64,000 nt of DNA from Candidatus Omnitrophota bacterium (GCA_023248155.1 JAHFFE010000002.1:42263-106262), one strand, 5' to 3'; counted from the first letter of the stretch, positions 5,555 to 48,991 are shown. Numbers and translations: made by a program. The notes: generated by a model not told the origin, from the sequence alone.

Positions 5555-6328
5555 ATGTTCCGGTCAGTCGTGAAATCCGCGTCTCTTTTTCTGCTGGCAT
5601 TTTTCGTTTCTGCGTTGCCGGCGCGGGCCGTTTCTTTGGAAAGCCTGACCGACTCCGAAAAACAACTGCGCATTTCCATCTTCAATAAAGTCGATCCGGT
5701 GCTTGCCAAGAAAAAAGAGAAGGGGACTGCGCCGTTATTTACCTACCGGCAGTTTTACGCGCCGTTGAACAAGAAGGAACGGGCTTTTCTGGACGAAATC
5801 CGCGCCGTGGATCCGGACAAAATCGAAGGAGCCAGCCGCCCATTGCCGCCGCCCGCGCCCGATACGGAATTTGTTCCGCTGGGTAAGCAAGTGACGATTC
5901 GCGACGGAAAATCGATCAAGCTGGATCCGCAATATCTGCCGAGGGCCGTTTACGATGCGTATCAGGCGATGATGGCCGCGATGGAAAAAGAGATTGGCAA
6001 ACGGCTGCTGGTCGAGTCAGGATACCGTTCGCCGGCCTATCAGCTGTACCTATTTTTGTTCTATATGCCGAAGCATGATTTCTCGATCCGCGAGACGAAC
6101 CGCCATGTGGCGCTGCCCGGTTGCAGCGAGCATGGCAGTCCGGCGCGGCAGGCAATCGATTTCATTACGCCGGGCGGCATCAACGGCGAGGATCATCCCG
6201 AAGAGTTCGAAGCGCTTGAAGAATACCGCTGGCTGCAGCGCCGCGCGAAAAGTTTCGGTTTTTATCTGTCATATCCGCGCGGCGGAAAATCGGCGTTCGA
6301 ACCCTGGCACTGGCATTATGAGCAATAA
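5555..6328 (+). CDS. Peptidase M15 (VanY/D-Ala-D-Ala carboxypeptidase-like) secreted enzyme
   Basis: Start chosen at the ATG at 5555 (MFRSVVKSASLFLLAFFVSALPARA signal peptide). SEHGSPARQAIDF (SxHxxGxAxD) and EPWHWHY motifs are typical of M15B/VanY. Divergent from the NlpC/P60-epimerase pair. Confidence 0.75.
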   Translation: MFRSVVKSASLFLLAFFVSALPARAVSLESLTDSEKQLRISIFNKVDPVLAKKKEKGTAPLFTYRQFYAPLNKKERAFLDEIRAVDPDKIEGASRPLPPPAPDTEFVPLGKQVTIRDGKSIKLDPQYLPRAVYDAYQAMMAAMEKEIGKRLLVESGYRSPAYQLYLFLFYMPKHDFSIRETNRHVALPGCSEHGSPARQAIDFITPGGINGEDHPEEFEALEEYRWLQRRAKSFGFYLSYPRGGKSAFEPWHWHYEQ

Positions 6329-42003: not shown

Positions 42004-43446
42004 TTAGCTTGAATAGGTGATAACCACCCGCCCGACGGCGCCGTTATTGGATCCGGACGGAGATCGGGCAAACCAGCCGCATCCTCCGCCTCCGGGAGCT
42101 ACGCCGTCTGTTCCGATAAAGCGTGAACTGTTCAATTCACCAACGCTTCCGGCGCCACCATTTCCTCCGCTTCCTCCCGCCCGTTGGTATAATGTAAAAA
42201 ACGGCGCTATGGCATCCTGGCCCGAAATATTAAATGTTGCCGTACTGGTTCCGCCTCGTCCTACAATAGCTCCTTCAATTCCTCCAGAGCTTCCGCCTCT
42301 TCCGCCTGTAGCGCTAACAGCAGGGGGAACATTCAGTCCTGTTACGGAGGAGGTGCCGCCGTTGCCTCCGGTATTTGAATTTGTTTTCTGACCTGTTCCT
42401 CCGGCACCGACCGTGATGGTCAAAACGGCTCCAGGTGTTACCGTCGCGAGTTGTCTGCCGTAACCTCCACCTCCACCTCCGTGACCAAACTGAGCGCCGC
42501 CAGCGTTGGGGCTTCCGCCACCGCCACCTCCACCTCCCCAAACTTCAACTGTGACTCCTGTTACTCCGGCCGGTACAGTCCAGTTCGTTGCTCCGGCTGT
42601 GCCAAATACCACTTGCGTTGTCAGGCCTACGCTTCCGCTTACGGAGGCTAAAATAGTAGTCCATGCTGTTCCGTTGTAGAGATTTAATTGGTTCGTAGTG
42701 GTGTTGTAAATTATCAGCCCGGCTACTGGACCGGCAATCGCGTTCCGCTCGGCCGTGATCATTCGAGGAGGGAGAAACCCCTTTGTCGTAGAAGTCAGAT
42801 CCAATGCCGCCGATGCGGCCGGCGCCGCCGTTCCGATCCCCACATTCCCGCCCAGAGGGTTCAACACCAGGTTTCGGAAAGCCACATTCTGTGACTCCGC
42901 TTGAATGTAGCCGGTATTGGTAAAGTTGGTGCTGTCGTAATCCCGGTTGAACCCCAGCGCTAGGCCTCCATTCCCCGCAGCGAGGCTCGGCGTGTTCAGA
43001 TAAATGCCGCTTTGCCCGTTCGCTGAAATCCGCGCCCCGCTGGCCCCAGCTACATCCAACGCGTAAGCGGGGGCCGCCGTCCCAATCCCAACCCGTATTC
43101 CCGGAGTTCCCGGCACTCCAGCGTTGTCTGCTCCAGACGAGAAAATGACATTACTGATGGCGTCATCGGCCCCCACCACATGCAGCGGTCCCTGCGGGTT
43201 GGTAGTCCCGATACCCACTGGACCTACGATGAACGCCGCGCCATTGTTTAGAGGAGGGGTTGGCGTTGCCTCAAAATCGGTTCCGACCGTTAAGCTTTGG
43301 AGATGTTGATTGCCTGTGTTGGACGAAGAGGGGTAGTAGGTGACCAGTTCGACGGTTTCCGCCCACGCGTAACCGGCGAGGATGCCAATGATGAGGAATA
43401 AAAACAATGCGTTGCCGCTGGAAAACCTGCTTTTAATTTTTATCAA
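42004..43446 (-). CDS. Secreted glycine-rich protein with tail-fibre-like repeat motifs
   Basis: Signal peptide. Repeated VGIGTTNPQGPLHV, NVGIGTAAP…LDL and KGFLPPRMT…YNGTAW motifs reminiscent of phage tail-fibre/collar modules. C-terminal GGGGGGG-rich region. Confidence 0.5.
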   Translation of the reverse strand: MIKIKSRFSSGNALFLFLIIGILAGYAWAETVELVTYYPSSSNTGNQHLQSLTVGTDFEATPTPPLNNGAAFIVGPVGIGTTNPQGPLHVVGADDAISNVIFSSGADNAGVPGTPGIRVGIGTAAPAYALDVAGASGARISANGQSGIYLNTPSLAAGNGGLALGFNRDYDSTNFTNTGYIQAESQNVAFRNLVLNPLGGNVGIGTAAPAASAALDLTSTTKGFLPPRMITAERNAIAGPVAGLIIYNTTTNQLNLYNGTAWTTILASVSGSVGLTTQVVFGTAGATNWTVPAGVTGVTVEVWGGGGGGGGSPNAGGAQFGHGGGGGGYGRQLATVTPGAVLTITVGAGGTGQKTNSNTGGNGGTSSVTGLNVPPAVSATGGRGGSSGGIEGAIVGRGGTSTATFNISGQDAIAPFFTLYQRAGGSGGNGGAGSVGELNSSRFIGTDGVAPGGGGCGWFARSPSGSNNGAVGRVVITYSS

Positions 43447-43522: not shown

Positions 43523-44023
43523 GTGGTAGCTTCCTATACAATGAACCGCTGGAGACCCGTTCTCACGATGATCGCCGCGCTGGCGGCCGGTTTTGCCATC
43601 GGCGCCGGGATCGGCTGGATCCACCGCCAATCGCGGCCGGCACCCGCTCCGGCGCTTCCGGCCCAAACCCAGTTTCGCATCAACGGCCTGATCGATATCC
43701 ATCCGAAATTCAAAAAAAGAGTCAAGCAGTCCGATGTTTTATTTCTCGTGGTTCGTCTTGAAGGGCAGGCCGTTCCGTACGCGGTTAAAAAAATAGCCCC
43801 GGTTTCTTTTCCTCTGCCATACGCGATTGGCCCCGAAGACCGGATGCTCGGAGAAGCGTCGGAACCGCTGAGTCCCGGCCGCAAAATCTCGCTGGCGGCG
43901 CGGCTGGACCACGACGGAGAAGTGTCTGCGAGTCCCGGGGATTTGGAGGGGAGCCCTGCCGAAGGATCATTCGAGTTGCCCGCCGATTCTCTGCATATTT
44001 TAATCGACCGCGTCGTGAAATAA
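43523..44023 (+). CDS. Hypothetical membrane-anchored protein
   Basis: N-terminal TM (PVLTMIAALAAGFAIGAGIGWI); no motif recognised. Directly upstream of the ECF sigma gene. Confidence 0.4.
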   Translation: MVASYTMNRWRPVLTMIAALAAGFAIGAGIGWIHRQSRPAPAPALPAQTQFRINGLIDIHPKFKKRVKQSDVLFLVVRLEGQAVPYAVKKIAPVSFPLPYAIGPEDRMLGEASEPLSPGRKISLAARLDHDGEVSASPGDLEGSPAEGSFELPADSLHILIDRVVK

Positions 44024-44028
44024 AGGGG

Positions 44029-44054
44029 GGAACTTTTTCCTGAACAAGGGGTCT
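44029..44054 (+). promoter_or_regulatory. ECF-type promoter P1 (GGAAC-N17-GTCT) in front of the sigma gene; probably autoregulated
   Basis: -35 GGAAC at 44029-33, 17-nt spacer, -10 GTCT at 44051-54, only 2 nt before ATG 44057, which implies a leaderless mRNA. Confidence 0.55.
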
Positions 44055-44056
44055 TT

Positions 44057-44641
44057 ATGAGTGACGCGGAGCTGGTTGAACAAGCGCGTGCCGGAGACCG
44101 GCAGGCATTTGATCAACTGATGCAACGCTATGAGCGCGAAATGATCGGCGTGGCCTATCGAATGCTGGGCCACTCCGAAGACGCGGTCGATTTGGCACAG
44201 GAGGTGTTCTTGCGCGCCTGGCGCGGGCTCGGCCAGTTTCGCGGCGAAGCGTCGTTTCGCAGCTGGCTTTACCGGATCGCGCTCAATCTGGCGCGCAACA
44301 AACGCCGGTGGTACGCGCGCCATCGGATTGCTTCGATGGTTTCATTAAGCCCGTCCGACGAAGAGACCGAAGAAGGGGACCCTGCGCCGGTTGTACCGAT
44401 CGCTGACCCCTCGACGGATCCGCGTGCCGAGGCGCAGGCGAGTCAGTTTCAGGAAGCGGTGCGGCAGGCGTTGGAAAAACTTCCGGCGGAATTTCGGGAA
44501 ACGGTGATATTAAGGGATATTCAACAGTTGTCGTATGAGGAAGTCGCGCAAGCGACCGGACAACCGGTTGGAACGGTCCGGTCGCGGTTATCCCGCGGCC
44601 GGCATTTGCTGCGGGAAGCGTTAAAAGGAATTTATCCATGA
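44057..44641 (+). CDS. ECF (group IV) sigma-70 factor
   Basis: Region 2 (…DLAQEVFLRAWRGLGQFRG…SWLYRIALNLARN) and region 4 HTH (LSYEEVAQATGQPVGTVRSRLSRGR). Confidence 0.9.
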   Translation: MSDAELVEQARAGDRQAFDQLMQRYEREMIGVAYRMLGHSEDAVDLAQEVFLRAWRGLGQFRGEASFRSWLYRIALNLARNKRRWYARHRIASMVSLSPSDEETEEGDPAPVVPIADPSTDPRAEAQASQFQEAVRQALEKLPAEFRETVILRDIQQLSYEEVAQATGQPVGTVRSRLSRGRHLLREALKGIYP

Positions 44642-45591
44642 ACTGTCAGCAGTGCAGCGAACATCTTTCGGCGTACCTTGACGGACTGCTGTCGGCCTCT
44701 GAGCGGCAGGCGCTGGAGAGCCATTGCGCCGGCTGCGCCCGGTGCGCGGCGGAACTCGCCGATCTTCAGAAAATCCTGATAGCGCTTCCTCAATTGCCGC
44801 AGCCGCCGGTTCCGGAAAATTTCCGCCGCCGTGTCTGGTCTGAGATCGACCGGAAAGGACGGCCGCTCGATTCCTGGCTCATTAAATTGCCGGTAGGCGC
44901 TTTGGCGACGGCGGCCGTTATTTTATTGGTCGCGCGGGTTTCGCAAGATACCATGCCGCAAATGAAGGAACAGGCCGTGCTTTCCGATGTTGCCGCTGCT
45001 CGTTTTGCCGAGCCGACTATGCGACAGCAGAAGGCAGCTCCGCTTGCTGAACAAGAAGAATCAGTATCTGCAAAGGTCATTAATCAAGATAAAAACAAAA
45101 TGGAGTTAAAAGACAAAGCCGATCGATCCGAAGAAACATTGGGAAAATCCCAATCGGTTTCAGCGGCCGCGTCGCCTCAATTAGCGCCGCAACAAAACAG
45201 GGCTTCTATGAAAATGTTGGAAACGGAAGATGGAGAACTTGTTTCTGGGAGGAAAATGTCCGCCGATAGTTCTTCGGCAGCCAGCTTGGTTGCCGATGGT
45301 TTGGAAGATAAAAAATCCAGTTTCGATTCTGCTTATGGCGAATCTGAGCGATGGTTTTTAAGAGTAGAAGATCCATCGGCTACGCAGGTTTTGGTTAGGC
45401 ATATCCTCCAAGAAATGAATGCTTTCAATATTCGGTCGATTTCGCCCTACATAACCGAATTTCAGGTCTCGTTCGGCCAACGCGATTCTTTAAAACAGTA
45501 TTTAAATGAACTGGGCGATCTTCAGCAAGTATCTTCGGAAGATTCCACAATCGAAACAATAACCATTATTGTTCTCCAGCGAACATCGTAA
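44638..45591 (+). CDS. Zinc-binding (ZAS-type) anti-sigma factor, single TM, periplasmic C-terminal domain
   Basis: ATGA overlap with the sigma gene. CQQC…HCAGCARC HxxxCxxC-type motif. TM at PVGALATAAVILLVA. Confidence 0.75.
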   Translation: MNCQQCSEHLSAYLDGLLSASERQALESHCAGCARCAAELADLQKILIALPQLPQPPVPENFRRRVWSEIDRKGRPLDSWLIKLPVGALATAAVILLVARVSQDTMPQMKEQAVLSDVAAARFAEPTMRQQKAAPLAEQEESVSAKVINQDKNKMELKDKADRSEETLGKSQSVSAAASPQLAPQQNRASMKMLETEDGELVSGRKMSADSSSAASLVADGLEDKKSSFDSAYGESERWFLRVEDPSATQVLVRHILQEMNAFNIRSISPYITEFQVSFGQRDSLKQYLNELGDLQQVSSEDSTIETITIIVLQRTS

Positions 45592-45598
45592 ATTTTTG

Positions 45599-45624
45599 GG
45601 AACTTTTTCTTCCGCCCGGTGTCT
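45599..45624 (+). promoter_or_regulatory. ECF-type promoter P2 (GGAAC-N17-GTCT) before the precursor-MNIO operon
   Basis: GGAAC at 45599-603, GTCT at 45621-24. About 55 nt including the 5' UTR and GGGAGG Shine-Dalgarno are nearly identical to P3. Confidence 0.6.
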
Positions 45625-45653
45625 GCATCAGTAGAAAAGGGAGGAATAAACCA

Positions 45654-45863
45654 ATGAAAATTCCAGCGTCAGTGTTAGCGGTCATGTTGGTTGGATTGGG
45701 AAGCGTCGGCGTGATGGGCTGTGCCGCGCACCAGACTCCGACTGAAAAAGCACCCAAAAATAAACCGGACTCTGTTGAGCCGGCTGCCAACCCCCAACCC
45801 GAAACACCGAATCGCCCGAGTCGTTCTGCCGGTTATGAGTGTCGTGCCTGCGGAATGGGATAA
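45654..45863 (+). CDS. 69-aa secreted/lipobox peptide with C-terminal YECRACGMG; candidate RiPP precursor
   Basis: MKIPASVLAVMLVGLGSVGVMG|C signal + lipobox. Pro/Glu-rich linker, C-terminal CxxC. Immediately upstream of the DUF692 gene and behind the GGGAGG Shine-Dalgarno of P2. Confidence 0.55.
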   Translation: MKIPASVLAVMLVGLGSVGVMGCAAHQTPTEKAPKNKPDSVEPAANPQPETPNRPSRSAGYECRACGMG

Positions 45864-45865
45864 AA

Positions 45866-46738
45866 ATGGGGATTCCTCTCGTAGGGCTGTCGTTAATGCC
45901 GGAGGACCCCTTTCGTCAGGCGGCCTACCCTCTTTTTGAAGCGGGGGAAGTCGATGTTCTGGAATGGAGTTTTGATATGGGGTGGGCCGGCGCTCCGTTG
46001 CCTGAATGGATGGAGCAACTGCTCCATCTTTATGGGCAGCGGGGCCGCCTGCTGGGGCATGGAGTTTCATTTTCGCTCTTGTCCGGACAGTGGACCGACC
46101 GCCATCAGAGGTGGCTGCAATTATTATCGGAAGAAGCCACTCGCCACCGGTACCGGCATATCTCCGAACATTATGGATTTATGACGGCCGGAACTTACCA
46201 GAAAGGGGCTCCATTACCGGTCCCCAAAACTCCCGATACAGTTCGTCTCGGGCAGGACCGGTTGCGCCGGCTGGCCGAAGCGGCCGGATGTCCGGTCGGG
46301 CTGGAAAATCTGGCGTTTGCGTTTGGCGCTCATGATGTTTGGGATCAAGGTTCTTTTTTGGAAGAACTGCTGGAATCAGTGGATGGCTTTCTTCTGCTCG
46401 ATCTTCATAATCTCTACTGCCAGTCGGTAAATTTCAAAGCGCCTTGGACTGAATTAGTCGCGCAATACCCGCTCCATCGCGTTCGGGAGCTGCATCTTTC
46501 AGGCGGGTCCTGGTTCGCCGGTGAGCCGTCTTCCCGCTATGAACCGATCCGGCGCGATACGCACGATGGCGCTGTGCCCGAGGAACTTTTCGCTATGCTG
46601 CAGTCCATTTTGAAACGGGCTCCGGCGGTTGAAGCGGTAATTCTCGAACAGCTGGGCGATTCATTAGAGAGCGACGAATCGAAGGTTCGATTCCAGGCCG
46701 ATTACCGGAAAATTCGGGCGATTGTCCATGGACAATAA
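45866..46738 (+). CDS. DUF692 / MNIO (multinuclear non-haem iron oxidative) enzyme, MbnB/TglH/BufB-like
   Basis: Start at ATG 45866 (MGIPLVGLSL…), 3 nt after the peptide stop. HGVSFSL, SEHYGF, PVGLENLAFAF, LLLDLHNLYCQSVNF, VRELHLSGG and RRDTHDG match the conserved DUF692 TIM-barrel blocks. Confidence 0.8.
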   Translation: MGIPLVGLSLMPEDPFRQAAYPLFEAGEVDVLEWSFDMGWAGAPLPEWMEQLLHLYGQRGRLLGHGVSFSLLSGQWTDRHQRWLQLLSEEATRHRYRHISEHYGFMTAGTYQKGAPLPVPKTPDTVRLGQDRLRRLAEAAGCPVGLENLAFAFGAHDVWDQGSFLEELLESVDGFLLLDLHNLYCQSVNFKAPWTELVAQYPLHRVRELHLSGGSWFAGEPSSRYEPIRRDTHDGAVPEELFAMLQSILKRAPAVEAVILEQLGDSLESDESKVRFQADYRKIRAIVHGQ

Positions 46739-46934
46739 AACCTGCGAAGATAAAAACCTCGATAATTTCCAAAGCCGCTTGCTGGAGCTTATGCTGCAGC
46801 CGCTCTCGCAAGAACAGCGCTGGAGAGCTCTGAAAACAGACCCTCTTTTTATACCCTACCAGAACTACATCGCCTCATTTGATCCGCGCATGATGGAAGT
46901 GGCCGCGCAGATTATCCGGAAATGGACTGTTTAG
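46722..46934 (+). CDS. 70-aa protein resembling only the N-terminal (substrate-recognition) part of the DUF2063 MNIO partner
   Basis: Overlaps the MNIO 3' end by 17 nt. LDNFQSRLLELMLQP…YQNYIASF pattern resembles the DUF2063 N-terminus; the C-terminal domain is absent. Confidence 0.4.
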   Translation: MSMDNKTCEDKNLDNFQSRLLELMLQPLSQEQRWRALKTDPLFIPYQNYIASFDPRMMEVAAQIIRKWTV

Positions 46935-46937
46935 CCG

Positions 46938-46963
46938 GGAACTTTTTCCTCCGCCCGGTGTCT
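46938..46963 (+). promoter_or_regulatory. ECF-type promoter P3 (GGAAC-N17-GTCT) before the 639-aa secreted protein gene
   Basis: GGAAC at 46938-42, GTCT at 46960-63; near-duplicate of P2 including UTR and Shine-Dalgarno. Confidence 0.6.
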
Positions 46964-46991
46964 GCATTAGTAGAAAAAGGGAGGAACGACG

Positions 46992-48911
46992 ATGACTATT
47001 CAAACAAAGATTTTCGCGATTGCGGTGGCAGCGGTAGCGTGGATTACAGCCGGCCAGTCTTTTGCCGAGGCAACGACCGAGCCGTATTCATTGGAGCAGG
47101 GCCGTTATTCCGCGGTTGTCGACGGGGAAAAAGTTAAAATTCAGGCGGCGCTGGAATTCAAGGTGCTTGAAGACGGCCTGATCCAGATTCCGGTTTCGTT
47201 TGGCGGCGCCGAAATTCTGGATCTGAAATTATCCGGAGGATCCGCCGTGTTGGCGGTTGAGAACGACCAATACACGGTTCGGATTAGCCGCAAAGGAACC
47301 GTTCGGCTGACGGCCATGTTGATCGTGCCGTTGTCGCGCAATGCGGATCAGGAAGGGTTTTATCTCGAGATTCCGCAGGCGGTTTTTTCTTTCTGCACGG
47401 TCACGGTTCGGCGCGCCAGCGTGCAGTTAAGTCCTAATTATGCGGCCGCCGGAACCAGTCAGACCCGCGGCGATCAGACGATCATTACGCTGCCGTTGGG
47501 CTTAAAGCGGCAGGCCCAGGTTTTCTGGACGGTCCGCCCAATCCAGGAAACGCCGAAAACAACAGAACCGGTGGAGCCGGTTTATTTGGCGAATCTGCAG
47601 CTGCTGGGCACGCTGGAAGAAGAAACATTCCGTTGTTTGGCCACCGTTGATTTGCATCTGCTGCAGGGCGAATTAAAAACGGCTTTGTTCGAGCTGCCTT
47701 CGGGCTGGACCGTTACCGGGGTGCGCGGGGGTTCCGGCATTGCGGATTGGAAGACCGAGGCGGCCGGTTCGAATCAGCAGATCACGGTTATTTTCAACCA
47801 GCCGTTCAAGGAGGGGAACCTTCGTCTGCTGATTGATGCCGAACAACCGCTGAGCAGCGGCAGTGCCTCGGTTTCTTTGCCGAGTATTATTCCGGTCGGC
47901 GCAAAACGGTTAACGGGCCAATTGGCGCTGGCAACGGCCACGGCCATGGAATTGAAAGATCCGGTGATGGAAGGGGTCAAGCGGATCGATGTCCGGGAAT
48001 TGCCCGACGAATTGCGCGCGATGGCCAACGCGCCGGTCGTGGCGGCATTTCGTTATATGGAAGCCCCTTACCATGTGACGACCCAATTAATCCGTCCCGA
48101 AGAATTGCCGGTATTGGTGGCGATCGCTGAATCGGGAGAGTTAATCACGGTGGCTGCGCCGACGGGTGAAACCATTACGCGCGCGATTTATCAAATCCGT
48201 AATAACAAAAAAACAACGCTGAGCGTCACACTGCCGGCGGGGTCTACGCTCTGGTCGGTGCTGGTCGACCAGCGTCCGGTGAAGCCGTCGGCCGGACCGC
48301 GCGGGCAGATTCAAATTCCGATCATGAACAACCATGGTCCGGAAACGGTCTTCCCGGTGGAAATCGTCTATGTCCAGAAAACCGGTTCATTGAAATCGTT
48401 ACTTGGCCAAGTCCGTTACGAAGGTCCCGGCCTCGATATCCCGGTCACCGTTTCGTCCTGGAAACTGCTTTTACCCGACGGATTGATAAAGATCGGTTAT
48501 TCCGGCAATGTAGAAGCTGGTTTTTCGGTGAACACGGTGCCAGTCGAATTGGCTGCTTATCGCGATGTTTCGGCGAATGCGGCGCTCCGACGGGACTCTG
48601 CCCGATGCCAAAAAGTATTAGCCGCTGCTCCGGCAGCGCAGTCGTTGGCCGATTGCGAGTATAAGGTAAAGGAAGAATTTCAGGAGGTGGTTGGTAAAAC
48701 TCAGCAAACCGGCGTGCTGCCGTTCCGGATTTCAATTCCGCAGAGCGGCCGCGTTTACCGGTTTGGCCGGTTGCTGGCCGTCAACGAGCCGATGTCGGTC
48801 CAGATTAATTATGTCCGGACATCCGCAATGCCGTTCGCCAGCGGCGGAATGGTGTTTGTTGGATTGATGGGGCTGGCGGGTGTTGCCCGGCTGGTTCGTG
48901 CCAAGAAGTAA
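46992..48911 (+). CDS. Large secreted beta-rich protein with C-terminal TM anchor; member of the ECF regulon
   Basis: Signal peptide MTIQTKIFAIAVAAVAWITAGQSFA, C-terminal GGMVFVGLMGLAGVARLVRAKK. No catalytic motif recognised. Confidence 0.55.
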   Translation: MTIQTKIFAIAVAAVAWITAGQSFAEATTEPYSLEQGRYSAVVDGEKVKIQAALEFKVLEDGLIQIPVSFGGAEILDLKLSGGSAVLAVENDQYTVRISRKGTVRLTAMLIVPLSRNADQEGFYLEIPQAVFSFCTVTVRRASVQLSPNYAAAGTSQTRGDQTIITLPLGLKRQAQVFWTVRPIQETPKTTEPVEPVYLANLQLLGTLEEETFRCLATVDLHLLQGELKTALFELPSGWTVTGVRGGSGIADWKTEAAGSNQQITVIFNQPFKEGNLRLLIDAEQPLSSGSASVSLPSIIPVGAKRLTGQLALATATAMELKDPVMEGVKRIDVRELPDELRAMANAPVVAAFRYMEAPYHVTTQLIRPEELPVLVAIAESGELITVAAPTGETITRAIYQIRNNKKTTLSVTLPAGSTLWSVLVDQRPVKPSAGPRGQIQIPIMNNHGPETVFPVEIVYVQKTGSLKSLLGQVRYEGPGLDIPVTVSSWKLLLPDGLIKIGYSGNVEAGFSVNTVPVELAAYRDVSANAALRRDSARCQKVLAAAPAAQSLADCEYKVKEEFQEVVGKTQQTGVLPFRISIPQSGRVYRFGRLLAVNEPMSVQINYVRTSAMPFASGGMVFVGLMGLAGVARLVRAKK

Positions 48912-48991
48912 AAAGAGTGGGCTCCCTGACCAGGTTTTCAGGGAGCCCGGTTCTTTGTTCTTTTTGATTCTCTGCGTGGTAAAATAACAGT

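Follow-up and report, generated by a model that had tools for sequence, protein, structure and literature searches.

The 64,000-nt stretch of Candidatus Omnitrophota DNA considered here (GCA_023248155.1 JAHFFE010000002.1:42263-106262; hereafter the window) carries three copies of one promoter motif, P1, P2 and P3, beside the genes for a sigma factor of the extracytoplasmic function (ECF) type and its putative anti-sigma factor. The reading that we favor, and consider likely, is a sigma-E-like regulon with a conserved envelope target, into which a gene set for a lipidated peptide that is made by ribosomes and modified after translation (lipo-RiPP) has been recruited by means of a duplicated promoter-leader cassette. 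Specifically, P2 is predicted to drive a RiPP cluster of the ChrH/DybH type and P3 a conserved envelope protein of 639 aa, neither of which was identified in an earlier note on this DNA. The ECF circuit itself is of a well-known kind; the main value of the locus is the apparent link between a ChrH/DybH lipo-RiPP and an envelope-type ECF switch.

The three copies of GGAAC-N17-GTCT claimed in the earlier note are all found as exact matches (44029-44054, 45599-45624 and 46938-46963), and they are the only such matches in the 64-kb window, all on the + strand and within 3 kb. In 100 dinucleotide-preserving shuffles the average was 0.34 matches, and three were never reached. A longer -35 block, GGGAACTTTTTCYT, is common to all three sites. 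Scored with a 31-nt weight matrix trained solely on sites from other genomes, the window sites being left out, P1, P2 and P3 reach 31.5, 35.9 and 37.7 bits, and the next best match in the window 12.7 bits; within these 64 kb the regulon consists of P1, P2 and P3 only. An alignment of 14 sites has the invariant positions G.AAC.T...G.GTCT and the consensus TTTCnGGGAACTTTTT-N-GGGGTCTnAT, and the window motif agrees, in the same register, with the mapped Escherichia coli sigma-E consensus, GGAACTTTT / (T/C)GGTCAAAA, in which a 16-nt spacer is preferred (PMC1312014). The motif, with its conserved -35 AAC and -10 (C)GTC-type elements, lies 5′ of the sigma gene and of the target genes and is kept in seven related loci. 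That these are ECF-type promoters beside an ECF sigma/anti-sigma pair, as had been proposed, is supported by the Pfam and NCBIfam identities of the genes, promoter activity being a prediction. Among 60 mapped sigma-E promoters, discriminators measure 5–6 nt and +1 lies 25–28 nt from GGAACTT (PMC1312014); all start sites given here are predictions that apply these E. coli spacing rules to a distant phylum.

P2 and P3 are alike well beyond the -35 and -10 elements. From GGGAAC to GGGAGGAA (45598-45647 and 46937-46987) they are identical at 47 of 51 positions, with three substitutions and one single-base indel, and up to the start codons at 49 of 57; together they rank first among the direct-repeat families in the region (D1). 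P1 has only the -35 and -10 blocks and AT.AGT in common with them. The distance from GTCT to ATG is 29 nt at P2 and 28 nt at P3, including a GGGAGGA Shine-Dalgarno (SD) sequence, and the predicted leaders of about 20 nt, SD included, are predicted to be unstructured. This degree of identity, the single promoter of more distant relatives and a concerted change in a closer one bear out the proposal of the earlier note that promoter, 5′ untranslated region and SD were duplicated as one cassette. The closer relative is L082, a syntenic contig whose MNIO protein is 87% identical and in which each of the three motifs is kept at its gene junction. The leader contains TAGAAAA in the window, L087 and L092, and both L082 copies share a derived AGCTAAAGGG, produced by an indel and substitutions; this shared derived leader points to gene conversion between the P2 and P3 copies, which would be its simplest explanation.

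In minimum-energy folds of the read-through RNA, the pyrimidine-rich promoter spacer pairs with the SD in every P2 and P3 instance. Dinucleotide shuffles of the promoter segment mask the SD equally (41–89% do so at least as well, in the window and L082), and the idea that the spacer acts as an anti-SD was therefore rejected for the window as a composition effect. The target-operon leader of L085 (2590-2635) can form a 14-bp helix between its -10/discriminator region and its SD and start codon (z -2.05); there, just 3% of shuffles achieve equal masking, and occlusion of the SD in read-through RNA may be real. A search of the leaders for known RNA elements in Rfam at E <= 1 gave just a chance match to a small nucleolar RNA.

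The genes downstream of P2 match a divergent ChrH/DybH-type cluster. The MNIO protein alone covers positions 2–283 of the 363 in NF050165 (MNIO_ChrH), its best NCBIfam model, and fusing it with the product of the 68-aa open reading frame (ORF) that follows extends the match to positions 2–360 in one stretch. Because of this extension, the 68-aa ORF, which on its own matched no model, is identified as the family-specific C-terminal helical bundle, here encoded on its own; in 14 further loci, including some from Planctomycetota and Cyanobacteria, a small ORF homologous to it comes after the MNIO gene. There is precedent for this arrangement in MelH/MelHc, where the helical bundle is encoded separately and MelHc is required for activity (PMC13056109). 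The precursor carries MKIPASVLAVMLVGLGSVGVMGC, a candidate lipoprotein-type signal with n- and h-regions and a lipobox-like VMGC, kept in L082, in which the Met at -2 is non-canonical. At the C-terminus, CRACGMG retains CxxCGxG with the Pro lost, and the L082 orthologue has CPPCGRG; an ORF ending in C..CG.G occurs in 79 of 80 ChrH-family loci of other genomes, with non-Pro variants that include CEACGRG, CYACGRG and CLACGMG. It was PMC13056109 that defined CPxCGxG as the motif at the C-terminus, along with the precursors that have a lipobox ("DAG-RiPPs"), and by likeness to that class lipidation and a -4 Da macrocycle or heterocycle at the motif are candidate modifications here. ChrI (DUF1772) is absent from the cluster, as are ChrE and ChrP. 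In several Bacteroidota ChrH loci (L005, L007, L008, L011, L013, L014), three to four tandem precursor genes precede one MNIO gene, and their C-terminal motifs differ (CPPCGMG, CPGCGMG, CEACGRG, CGKCGKG). A fourth motif-like site, GGAAC-N16-GTC, lies at 46582-46605 within the MNIO coding region (codons EELFAML); because of its low matrix score it was dropped as a further promoter and is probably a chance occurrence.

The 639-aa product of the gene downstream of P3 is, from its signal peptide, modeled fold and C-terminal helix, predicted to be an envelope-anchored, extracytoplasmic protein. It has no Pfam or NCBIfam match, even at E <= 5, and belongs to a small family of 38 proteins, the nearest one with a name coming from Candidatus Omnitrophica. 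The best solved structures in a fold search were ribophorin I/Ost1, integrin legs and VIT-domain proteins, with TM-scores of 0.2–0.3; these are only generic beta-sandwich, C-terminally anchored matches, and assigning a function through the fold was abandoned. A homologue adjoins the sigma/anti-sigma genes in L083, L085, L088 and L092, and neighbors in relatives include VIT-VWA and DUF4139 proteins. The strong intrinsic terminator that follows the gene is kept in L082 (~6244-6275) with compensatory stem changes (CTCCCTGA/TCAGGGAG vs CTCTTTGG/CCAAGGAG).

The sigma protein has matches to PF04542, PF08281 and PF07638 over its 194 aa and contains sigma regions 2 and 4 only. It scores 117.8 bits against TIGR02937 (cutoff 42.9) and lies under the NCBIfam equivalog cutoffs of RpoE (TIGR02939, 140.1 vs 236) and SigW (NF007223, 124.6 vs 209), a pattern that marks it as a relative of RpoE/SigW and not an equivalog. 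Its ATG at 44057 is the only possible start, given an in-frame stop at 44021 and a conserved SDxELV N-terminus directly after the ATG. The co-directional gene whose start overlaps the sigma stop codon (ATGA) encodes an N-terminal zf-HC2 domain in which H-x3-C-x2-C is legible as HCAGCARC, and together the two genes have the features of an ECF (group 4) sigma factor with its cognate anti-sigma factor, from which sigma-dependent transcription is predicted. The anti-sigma protein is 59% identical to that of L082, compared with 84–91% for neighboring proteins, and the extracytoplasmic half of its gene (44850-45600) has a GC fraction of 0.40–0.50 vs about 0.57, which points to a fast-evolving sensor domain. 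Between the sigma and 639-aa genes, neither gene junction has a terminator-like site.

It is informative to compare the locus with its relatives. At 43–58% identity (L083/L084, L085, L088, L089, L092), the motif recurs both 5′ of the sigma gene and 5′ of the unit in which the 639-aa homologue lies, and promoters orthologous to P3 are present in L082, L087, L083, L088, L089 and L092; the motif-bearing relatives represent at least five further lineages, probably of Omnitrophota. All relatives in this identity range lack RiPP genes and have just one target promoter 3′ of the anti-sigma gene. In L083, L088 and L092 the locus runs sigma, anti-sigma, promoter, 639-aa homologue, and L085 has two extra genes between promoter and homologue. 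Conversely, in 80 ChrH-family loci of other phyla (Chryseobacterium, other Bacteroidota, Planctomycetota, Cyanobacteria, Verrucomicrobiota and others), searches by tblastn and a sigma profile hidden Markov model found neither the sigma factor, the anti-sigma factor nor the 639-aa protein within 7 kb, and none of these loci has the promoter motif. Since the RiPP-less relatives have a single promoter, the simplest history, its direction taken from parsimony, has the 639-aa gene as the original target and the RiPP set as a later insertion, together with a duplication of the promoter and leader. Horizontal acquisition of the set would be compatible with the nearest relatives of the MNIO protein (~60% identity), which come from Planctomycetota and Cyanobacteria, and with the MKIPASVL N-terminus that one Planctomycetota precursor also has.

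P1 differs from the two target promoters in its relation to the gene behind it. The earlier note was right that the motif stops just short of the sigma ATG (GTCT ends at 44054, a gap of 2 nt before 44057), and the leaderless mRNA that it deduced from this spacing does not follow: the predicted +1 lies at 44061-44064, past the ATG and within sigma codons 2–3, so that P1 should not be able to give a leaderless sigma mRNA. Nor are two of the three promoters leaderless, as it also held, given the 29- and 28-nt intervals and GGGAGGA sequences of P2 and P3. A leaderless message would have no SD 5′ of its start codon and would begin at the A of the ATG; at P1, the SD-like AAGGGG lies within the spacer and is kept in L082, and the sigma-E geometry places initiation elsewhere. 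No alternative in-frame sigma start lies 3′ of the predicted P1 start before codon 22, whose ATG is without an SD. The AAGGGG and a co-directional gene with a CycH Ig-like domain that ends 33 nt 5′ of the sigma ATG, both of them kept in L082, together fit translation of sigma from read-through RNA.

Measured from the C of GTC, the sigma start lies at +39 in L083, at +21 or +30 in L088, at +21 in L085, at +9 in L091 and L092, and at +4 in the window and L082. Because the orthologues have either ordinary leaders or, in L091 and L092, a leaderless geometry in which the distances are right, the 2-nt spacing of P1 appears to be a derived oddity. L091 (403-438) and L092 (98-133), whose sigma orthologues are 58% identical, read GGAAC-N17-GTCTAACGAAG-ATG with no SD; here TCTAA, a 5-nt discriminator and then the ATG make up the canonical spacing for a leaderless autoregulated sigma mRNA, and the leaderless idea would thus fit these relatives and not the window. 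The P1 interval is identical between window and L082 at 31 of 34 positions, above the locus-wide neutral rate of 0.68 (p 0.0014). About 45–130 nt upstream of P1 in L083 (6180-6200), L085 (565-585) and L091 (~355-375) lies TG(C/T)TAGTATG(G/A) followed by GTCAAGG, which resembles an extended -10 housekeeping promoter; this TGCTAGTATGG element, conserved in those three loci, does not occur in the window, its place being taken by the CycH-Ig gene.

Taken together, these features suggest the following mechanism. RNA polymerase bearing the window sigma, which is paired with a membrane-spanning zinc-finger anti-sigma factor, would recognize GGAACTTTT-N-GG(G/T)GTCT. The conserved job of this sigma family, probably of Omnitrophota, would be to switch on the secreted, membrane-anchored beta-sandwich protein, which in the ancestral state would be driven by one promoter just 3′ of the anti-sigma gene. 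Along the line leading to the window, the three-gene ChrH/DybH-type lipo-RiPP set would have been placed between the anti-sigma and 639-aa genes, and the ~50 nt comprising promoter, leader and SD would have been duplicated, such that both units fire from the same signal; gene conversion would keep P2 and P3 alike, and transcription would stop at the 48918-48949 terminator. P1 would descend from the autoregulatory promoter of the relatives and now abut the sigma start codon, with sigma most likely translated from CycH-Ig read-through RNA by use of the AAGGGG in the P1 spacer.

The origin of P2 and P3 could also be seen differently. It is conceivable that no duplication took place and that they are alike merely because selection favored in both a strong promoter and a strong ribosome-binding site, given that -35, -10 and SD would be functionally constrained in any ECF target; however, the identity runs on through the 17-nt spacer (16 of 17) and the leader, P1 has only the -35 and -10 blocks in common with them, orthologous target promoters elsewhere vary freely in spacer and leader, and a derived indel is shared by both L082 copies, all of which leaves this explanation very improbable. 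Two repeats would also permit a clean loss of the RiPP set, and one may therefore propose that the set and both promoter copies are ancestral and were lost in the single-promoter lineages by recombination between the 50-nt direct repeats. The repeats would allow deletion back to exactly one promoter, and the unremarkable composition of the RiPP block suits such a history. It is nonetheless unlikely, in that the set is absent from all five or six more distant lineages, the nearest MNIO relatives are found in Planctomycetota and Cyanobacteria and not in sister lineages, and no other ChrH locus has the sigma factor or the motif of the window.

Two further proposals concern P1. If transcription started at A44057, P1 would give a leaderless, positively autoregulated sigma mRNA, and in favor of this the ATG directly follows the motif, a leaderless sigma arrangement exists in the family (L091/L092), and P1 is intact in both window and L082. 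Yet A44057 is only 4 nt past the C of GTC, which would set the -35-to-start distance at 21 nt instead of 25–28 and the discriminator at 0 instead of 5–6; the AAGGGG 5 nt before the ATG would be roleless; and a co-directional gene ends close upstream. We regard this proposal as quite unlikely. Also unlikely, if less so, is an active P1 of normal geometry, whose RNA would lack the sigma start and carry the anti-sigma gene and perhaps those downstream, giving pure negative feedback. The predicted +1 and the retention of the motif in window and L082 are as this would require, the anti-sigma gene has an AAAGGA SD of its own before 44638, and a start codon within the promoter motif recurs in at least two other ECF lineages. 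In loci from a metagenome scan whose sigma factors are 35–44% identical to that of the window, the only in-frame sigma start lies in the promoter spacer (an ATG, M-E-S-V..., at L095 770, L096 3952, L106 2725 and L116 3970) or is a GTG in the -10 element (L109 3921, L134 72); a co-directional gene ends 10–40 nt upstream in L095, L096, L106, L116 and L109, the L134 contig being too short upstream. Against it, the argument is inferential throughout, the comparison with the other lineages covered start-codon position and upstream gene, the ATGA overlap of sigma stop and anti-sigma start usually signifies translational coupling to sigma, and P1 is not clearly more conserved than the sequence around it. 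By extension, it is a tentative suggestion that sigma is supplied solely by upstream read-through, with negative feedback replacing positive autoregulation; if true, a sigma start within or against the promoter motif would be a recurrent and so far undescribed ECF wiring in at least three lineages (that of the window, L095/096/106/116 and L109/134).

Several observations weigh against the explanation that we prefer, a sigma-E-like regulon with a recruited lipo-RiPP set. The ECF promoter activity of the motifs is read from sequence and not from transcription data, and the start sites at P1, P2 and P3 follow from E. coli rules carried over to a distant phylum. The 31 of 34 identical positions at P1 do not exceed the rate of 0.84 in the slower neighboring gene (p 0.18), and because of this P1 could be a decaying relic. 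A scan of the + strand upstream of 43568 with the sigma-70 consensus was empty, leaving the proposed read-through with no housekeeping promoter there. Both RiPP proteins fall under their NCBIfam equivalog cutoffs, the precursor with 32.8 bits against 40 for NF050125 ("chryseobasin-related MNIO class RiPP peptide") and the ChrH match with 351 against 600, and for that reason the cluster is best described as a divergent relative of ChrH/ChrA and not an equivalog. The choice between gain and loss of the RiPP set depends on parsimony over about six lineages, compared unrooted; in base composition the RiPP block (GC 0.53–0.57) does not stand out from its flanks, and composition thus gave no support to a foreign origin. 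Finally, P2 and P3 occur together in two genomes only, the window and L082, and the case for gene conversion comes from one lineage.

The closest well-studied counterpart of the regulatory pair is E. coli sigma-E (RpoE) with RseA. Like these RpoE/SigW-type systems, the window has a two-domain sigma factor (regions 2 and 4) co-encoded with a single-pass anti-sigma factor, a GGAACTTTT ... GGTC promoter in the same register (GGAACTT-N16-TC...), a copy of the motif 5′ of the sigma gene, and cell-envelope targets. It differs in the zf-HC2 (ZAS) N-terminus and unrelated extracytoplasmic part of the anti-sigma factor, in the overlap of P1 with the start codon, in its other target genes, in scores below the equivalog cutoffs (140 vs 236 bits) and in a host phylum that is probably Omnitrophota. 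Stress-dependent promoters in or near the coding start of a sigma gene, giving transcripts that differ in coding potential, are known from sigE of Mycobacterium tuberculosis and sigR of Streptomyces coelicolor; those genes use alternative in-frame starts, whereas in the window the next in-frame ATG is codon 22, with no SD. ECF control of RiPP operons is likewise familiar from lantibiotic clusters such as that of microbisporicin, in which the cluster's own ECF sigma/anti-sigma pair, MibX/MibW, drives the operons through a shared promoter motif. Those clusters belong to Actinobacteria and to another RiPP class, and their sigma factor appears to be dedicated to the cluster, as opposed to the older, non-RiPP target in the window.

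Among MNIO-modified RiPPs, the chryseobasin and "DAG-RiPP" systems of the ChrH/DybH type (PMC10214503, PMC13056109) resemble the window in an MNIO core with a helical bundle, separate as in MelH/MelHc, and in a directly upstream precursor with a CxxCGxG end and, as predicted here, a lipoprotein-type signal peptide as in DybA. The window differs from them in having Arg for Pro (CRACGMG), in having no ChrI, ChrE or ChrP, and in its setting within an ECF regulon. It is also worth considering the Buf1 bufferin clusters, where sigma and NrsF anti-sigma genes adjoin the cluster (PMC12452194, PMC11626156), such that an MNIO-modified RiPP with a signal peptide again lies beside an ECF-type pair. The MNIO protein of the window, however, belongs to a different subfamily (86 bits against BufB, 343 against ChrH), the precursor, the partner (DUF2063 in bufferin clusters) and the anti-sigma factor (NrsF there, zf-HC2 here) differ, and the promoter architecture was not analyzed in that work.

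Lipidated macrocyclic peptides of the ChrH/DybH type are widespread, and the papers that describe them state that their biological function is unknown and report no regulator; neither mentions sigma factors or regulation (0 occurrences of "sigma" in PMC10214503 and PMC13056109). In the window, the RiPP cluster and a conserved envelope protein have promoter and leader in common, under an ECF pair of the envelope type, inviting the hypothesis that the lipo-RiPP peptide belongs to the response to cell-envelope stress. This would also offer a practical handle, in that expression of the sigma factor or removal of the anti-sigma factor should turn the cluster on. More generally, the locus may be a clean instance, found in nature, of a regulon that took in a biosynthetic cluster when 50 nt of promoter and leader were duplicated. 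The coordinates of its features are collected in Table 1.

Table 1. Predicted features of the ECF locus, in positions of the window.
Feature	Position	Strand	Details
CycH Ig-like domain ORF	43568..44023	+	PF23892 E 3.5e-12; 151-aa gene call; same position in L082
P1 ECF promoter motif, GGAACTTTTTCCTGAACAAGGGGTCT	44029..44054	+	31.5 bits; near-identical in L082
SD-like AAGGGG in P1 spacer	44046..44051	+	5 nt before sigma ATG; identical in L082
ECF sigma factor, 194 aa, RpoE/SigW-like	44057..44641	+	Sigma70_r2, r4_2 and ECF Pfam matches
Anti-sigma factor, 317 aa	44638..45591	+	N-terminal zf-HC2 PF13490 E 3e-8; one predicted membrane helix
P2 cassette	45598..45647	+	-35 GGAAC 45599-45603, GTCT 45621-45624, predicted +1 45631-45634, SD GGGAGGA 45639-45645
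RiPP precursor, 69 aa	45654..45863	+	Signal peptide, lipobox-like VMGC, C-terminal CRACGMG; NF050125 ChrA_rel_RiPP E 8.7e-8
MNIO (DUF692) enzyme, ChrH/DybH subfamily, 290 aa	45866..46738	+	PF05114 E 1.5e-31; NF050165 E 2.6e-102
68-aa ORF, split-off ChrH C-terminal helical-bundle domain (MelHc-like)	46728..46934	+	Overlaps MNIO gene end by 11 nt
P3 cassette	46937..46987	+	-35 GGAAC 46938-46942, GTCT 46960-46963, predicted +1 46970-46973, SD GGGAGGA 46979-46985
639-aa protein	46992..48911	+	Signal peptide, beta-sandwich chain, C-terminal membrane helix; AlphaFold model pLDDT 78
Intrinsic terminator	48918..48949	+	12-bp stem then T-rich tail; closes unit

Upstream of the features in Table 1 and divergent from them, a 480-aa glycine-rich protein is encoded on the - strand (42004-43446), for which the gene call lists PF26696 PTL_trimer and PF21722 Gly_rich_2. 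Farther upstream of that gene lies one for a PilZ-T2SSE ATPase, which also adjoins the sigma gene in L083/L084.

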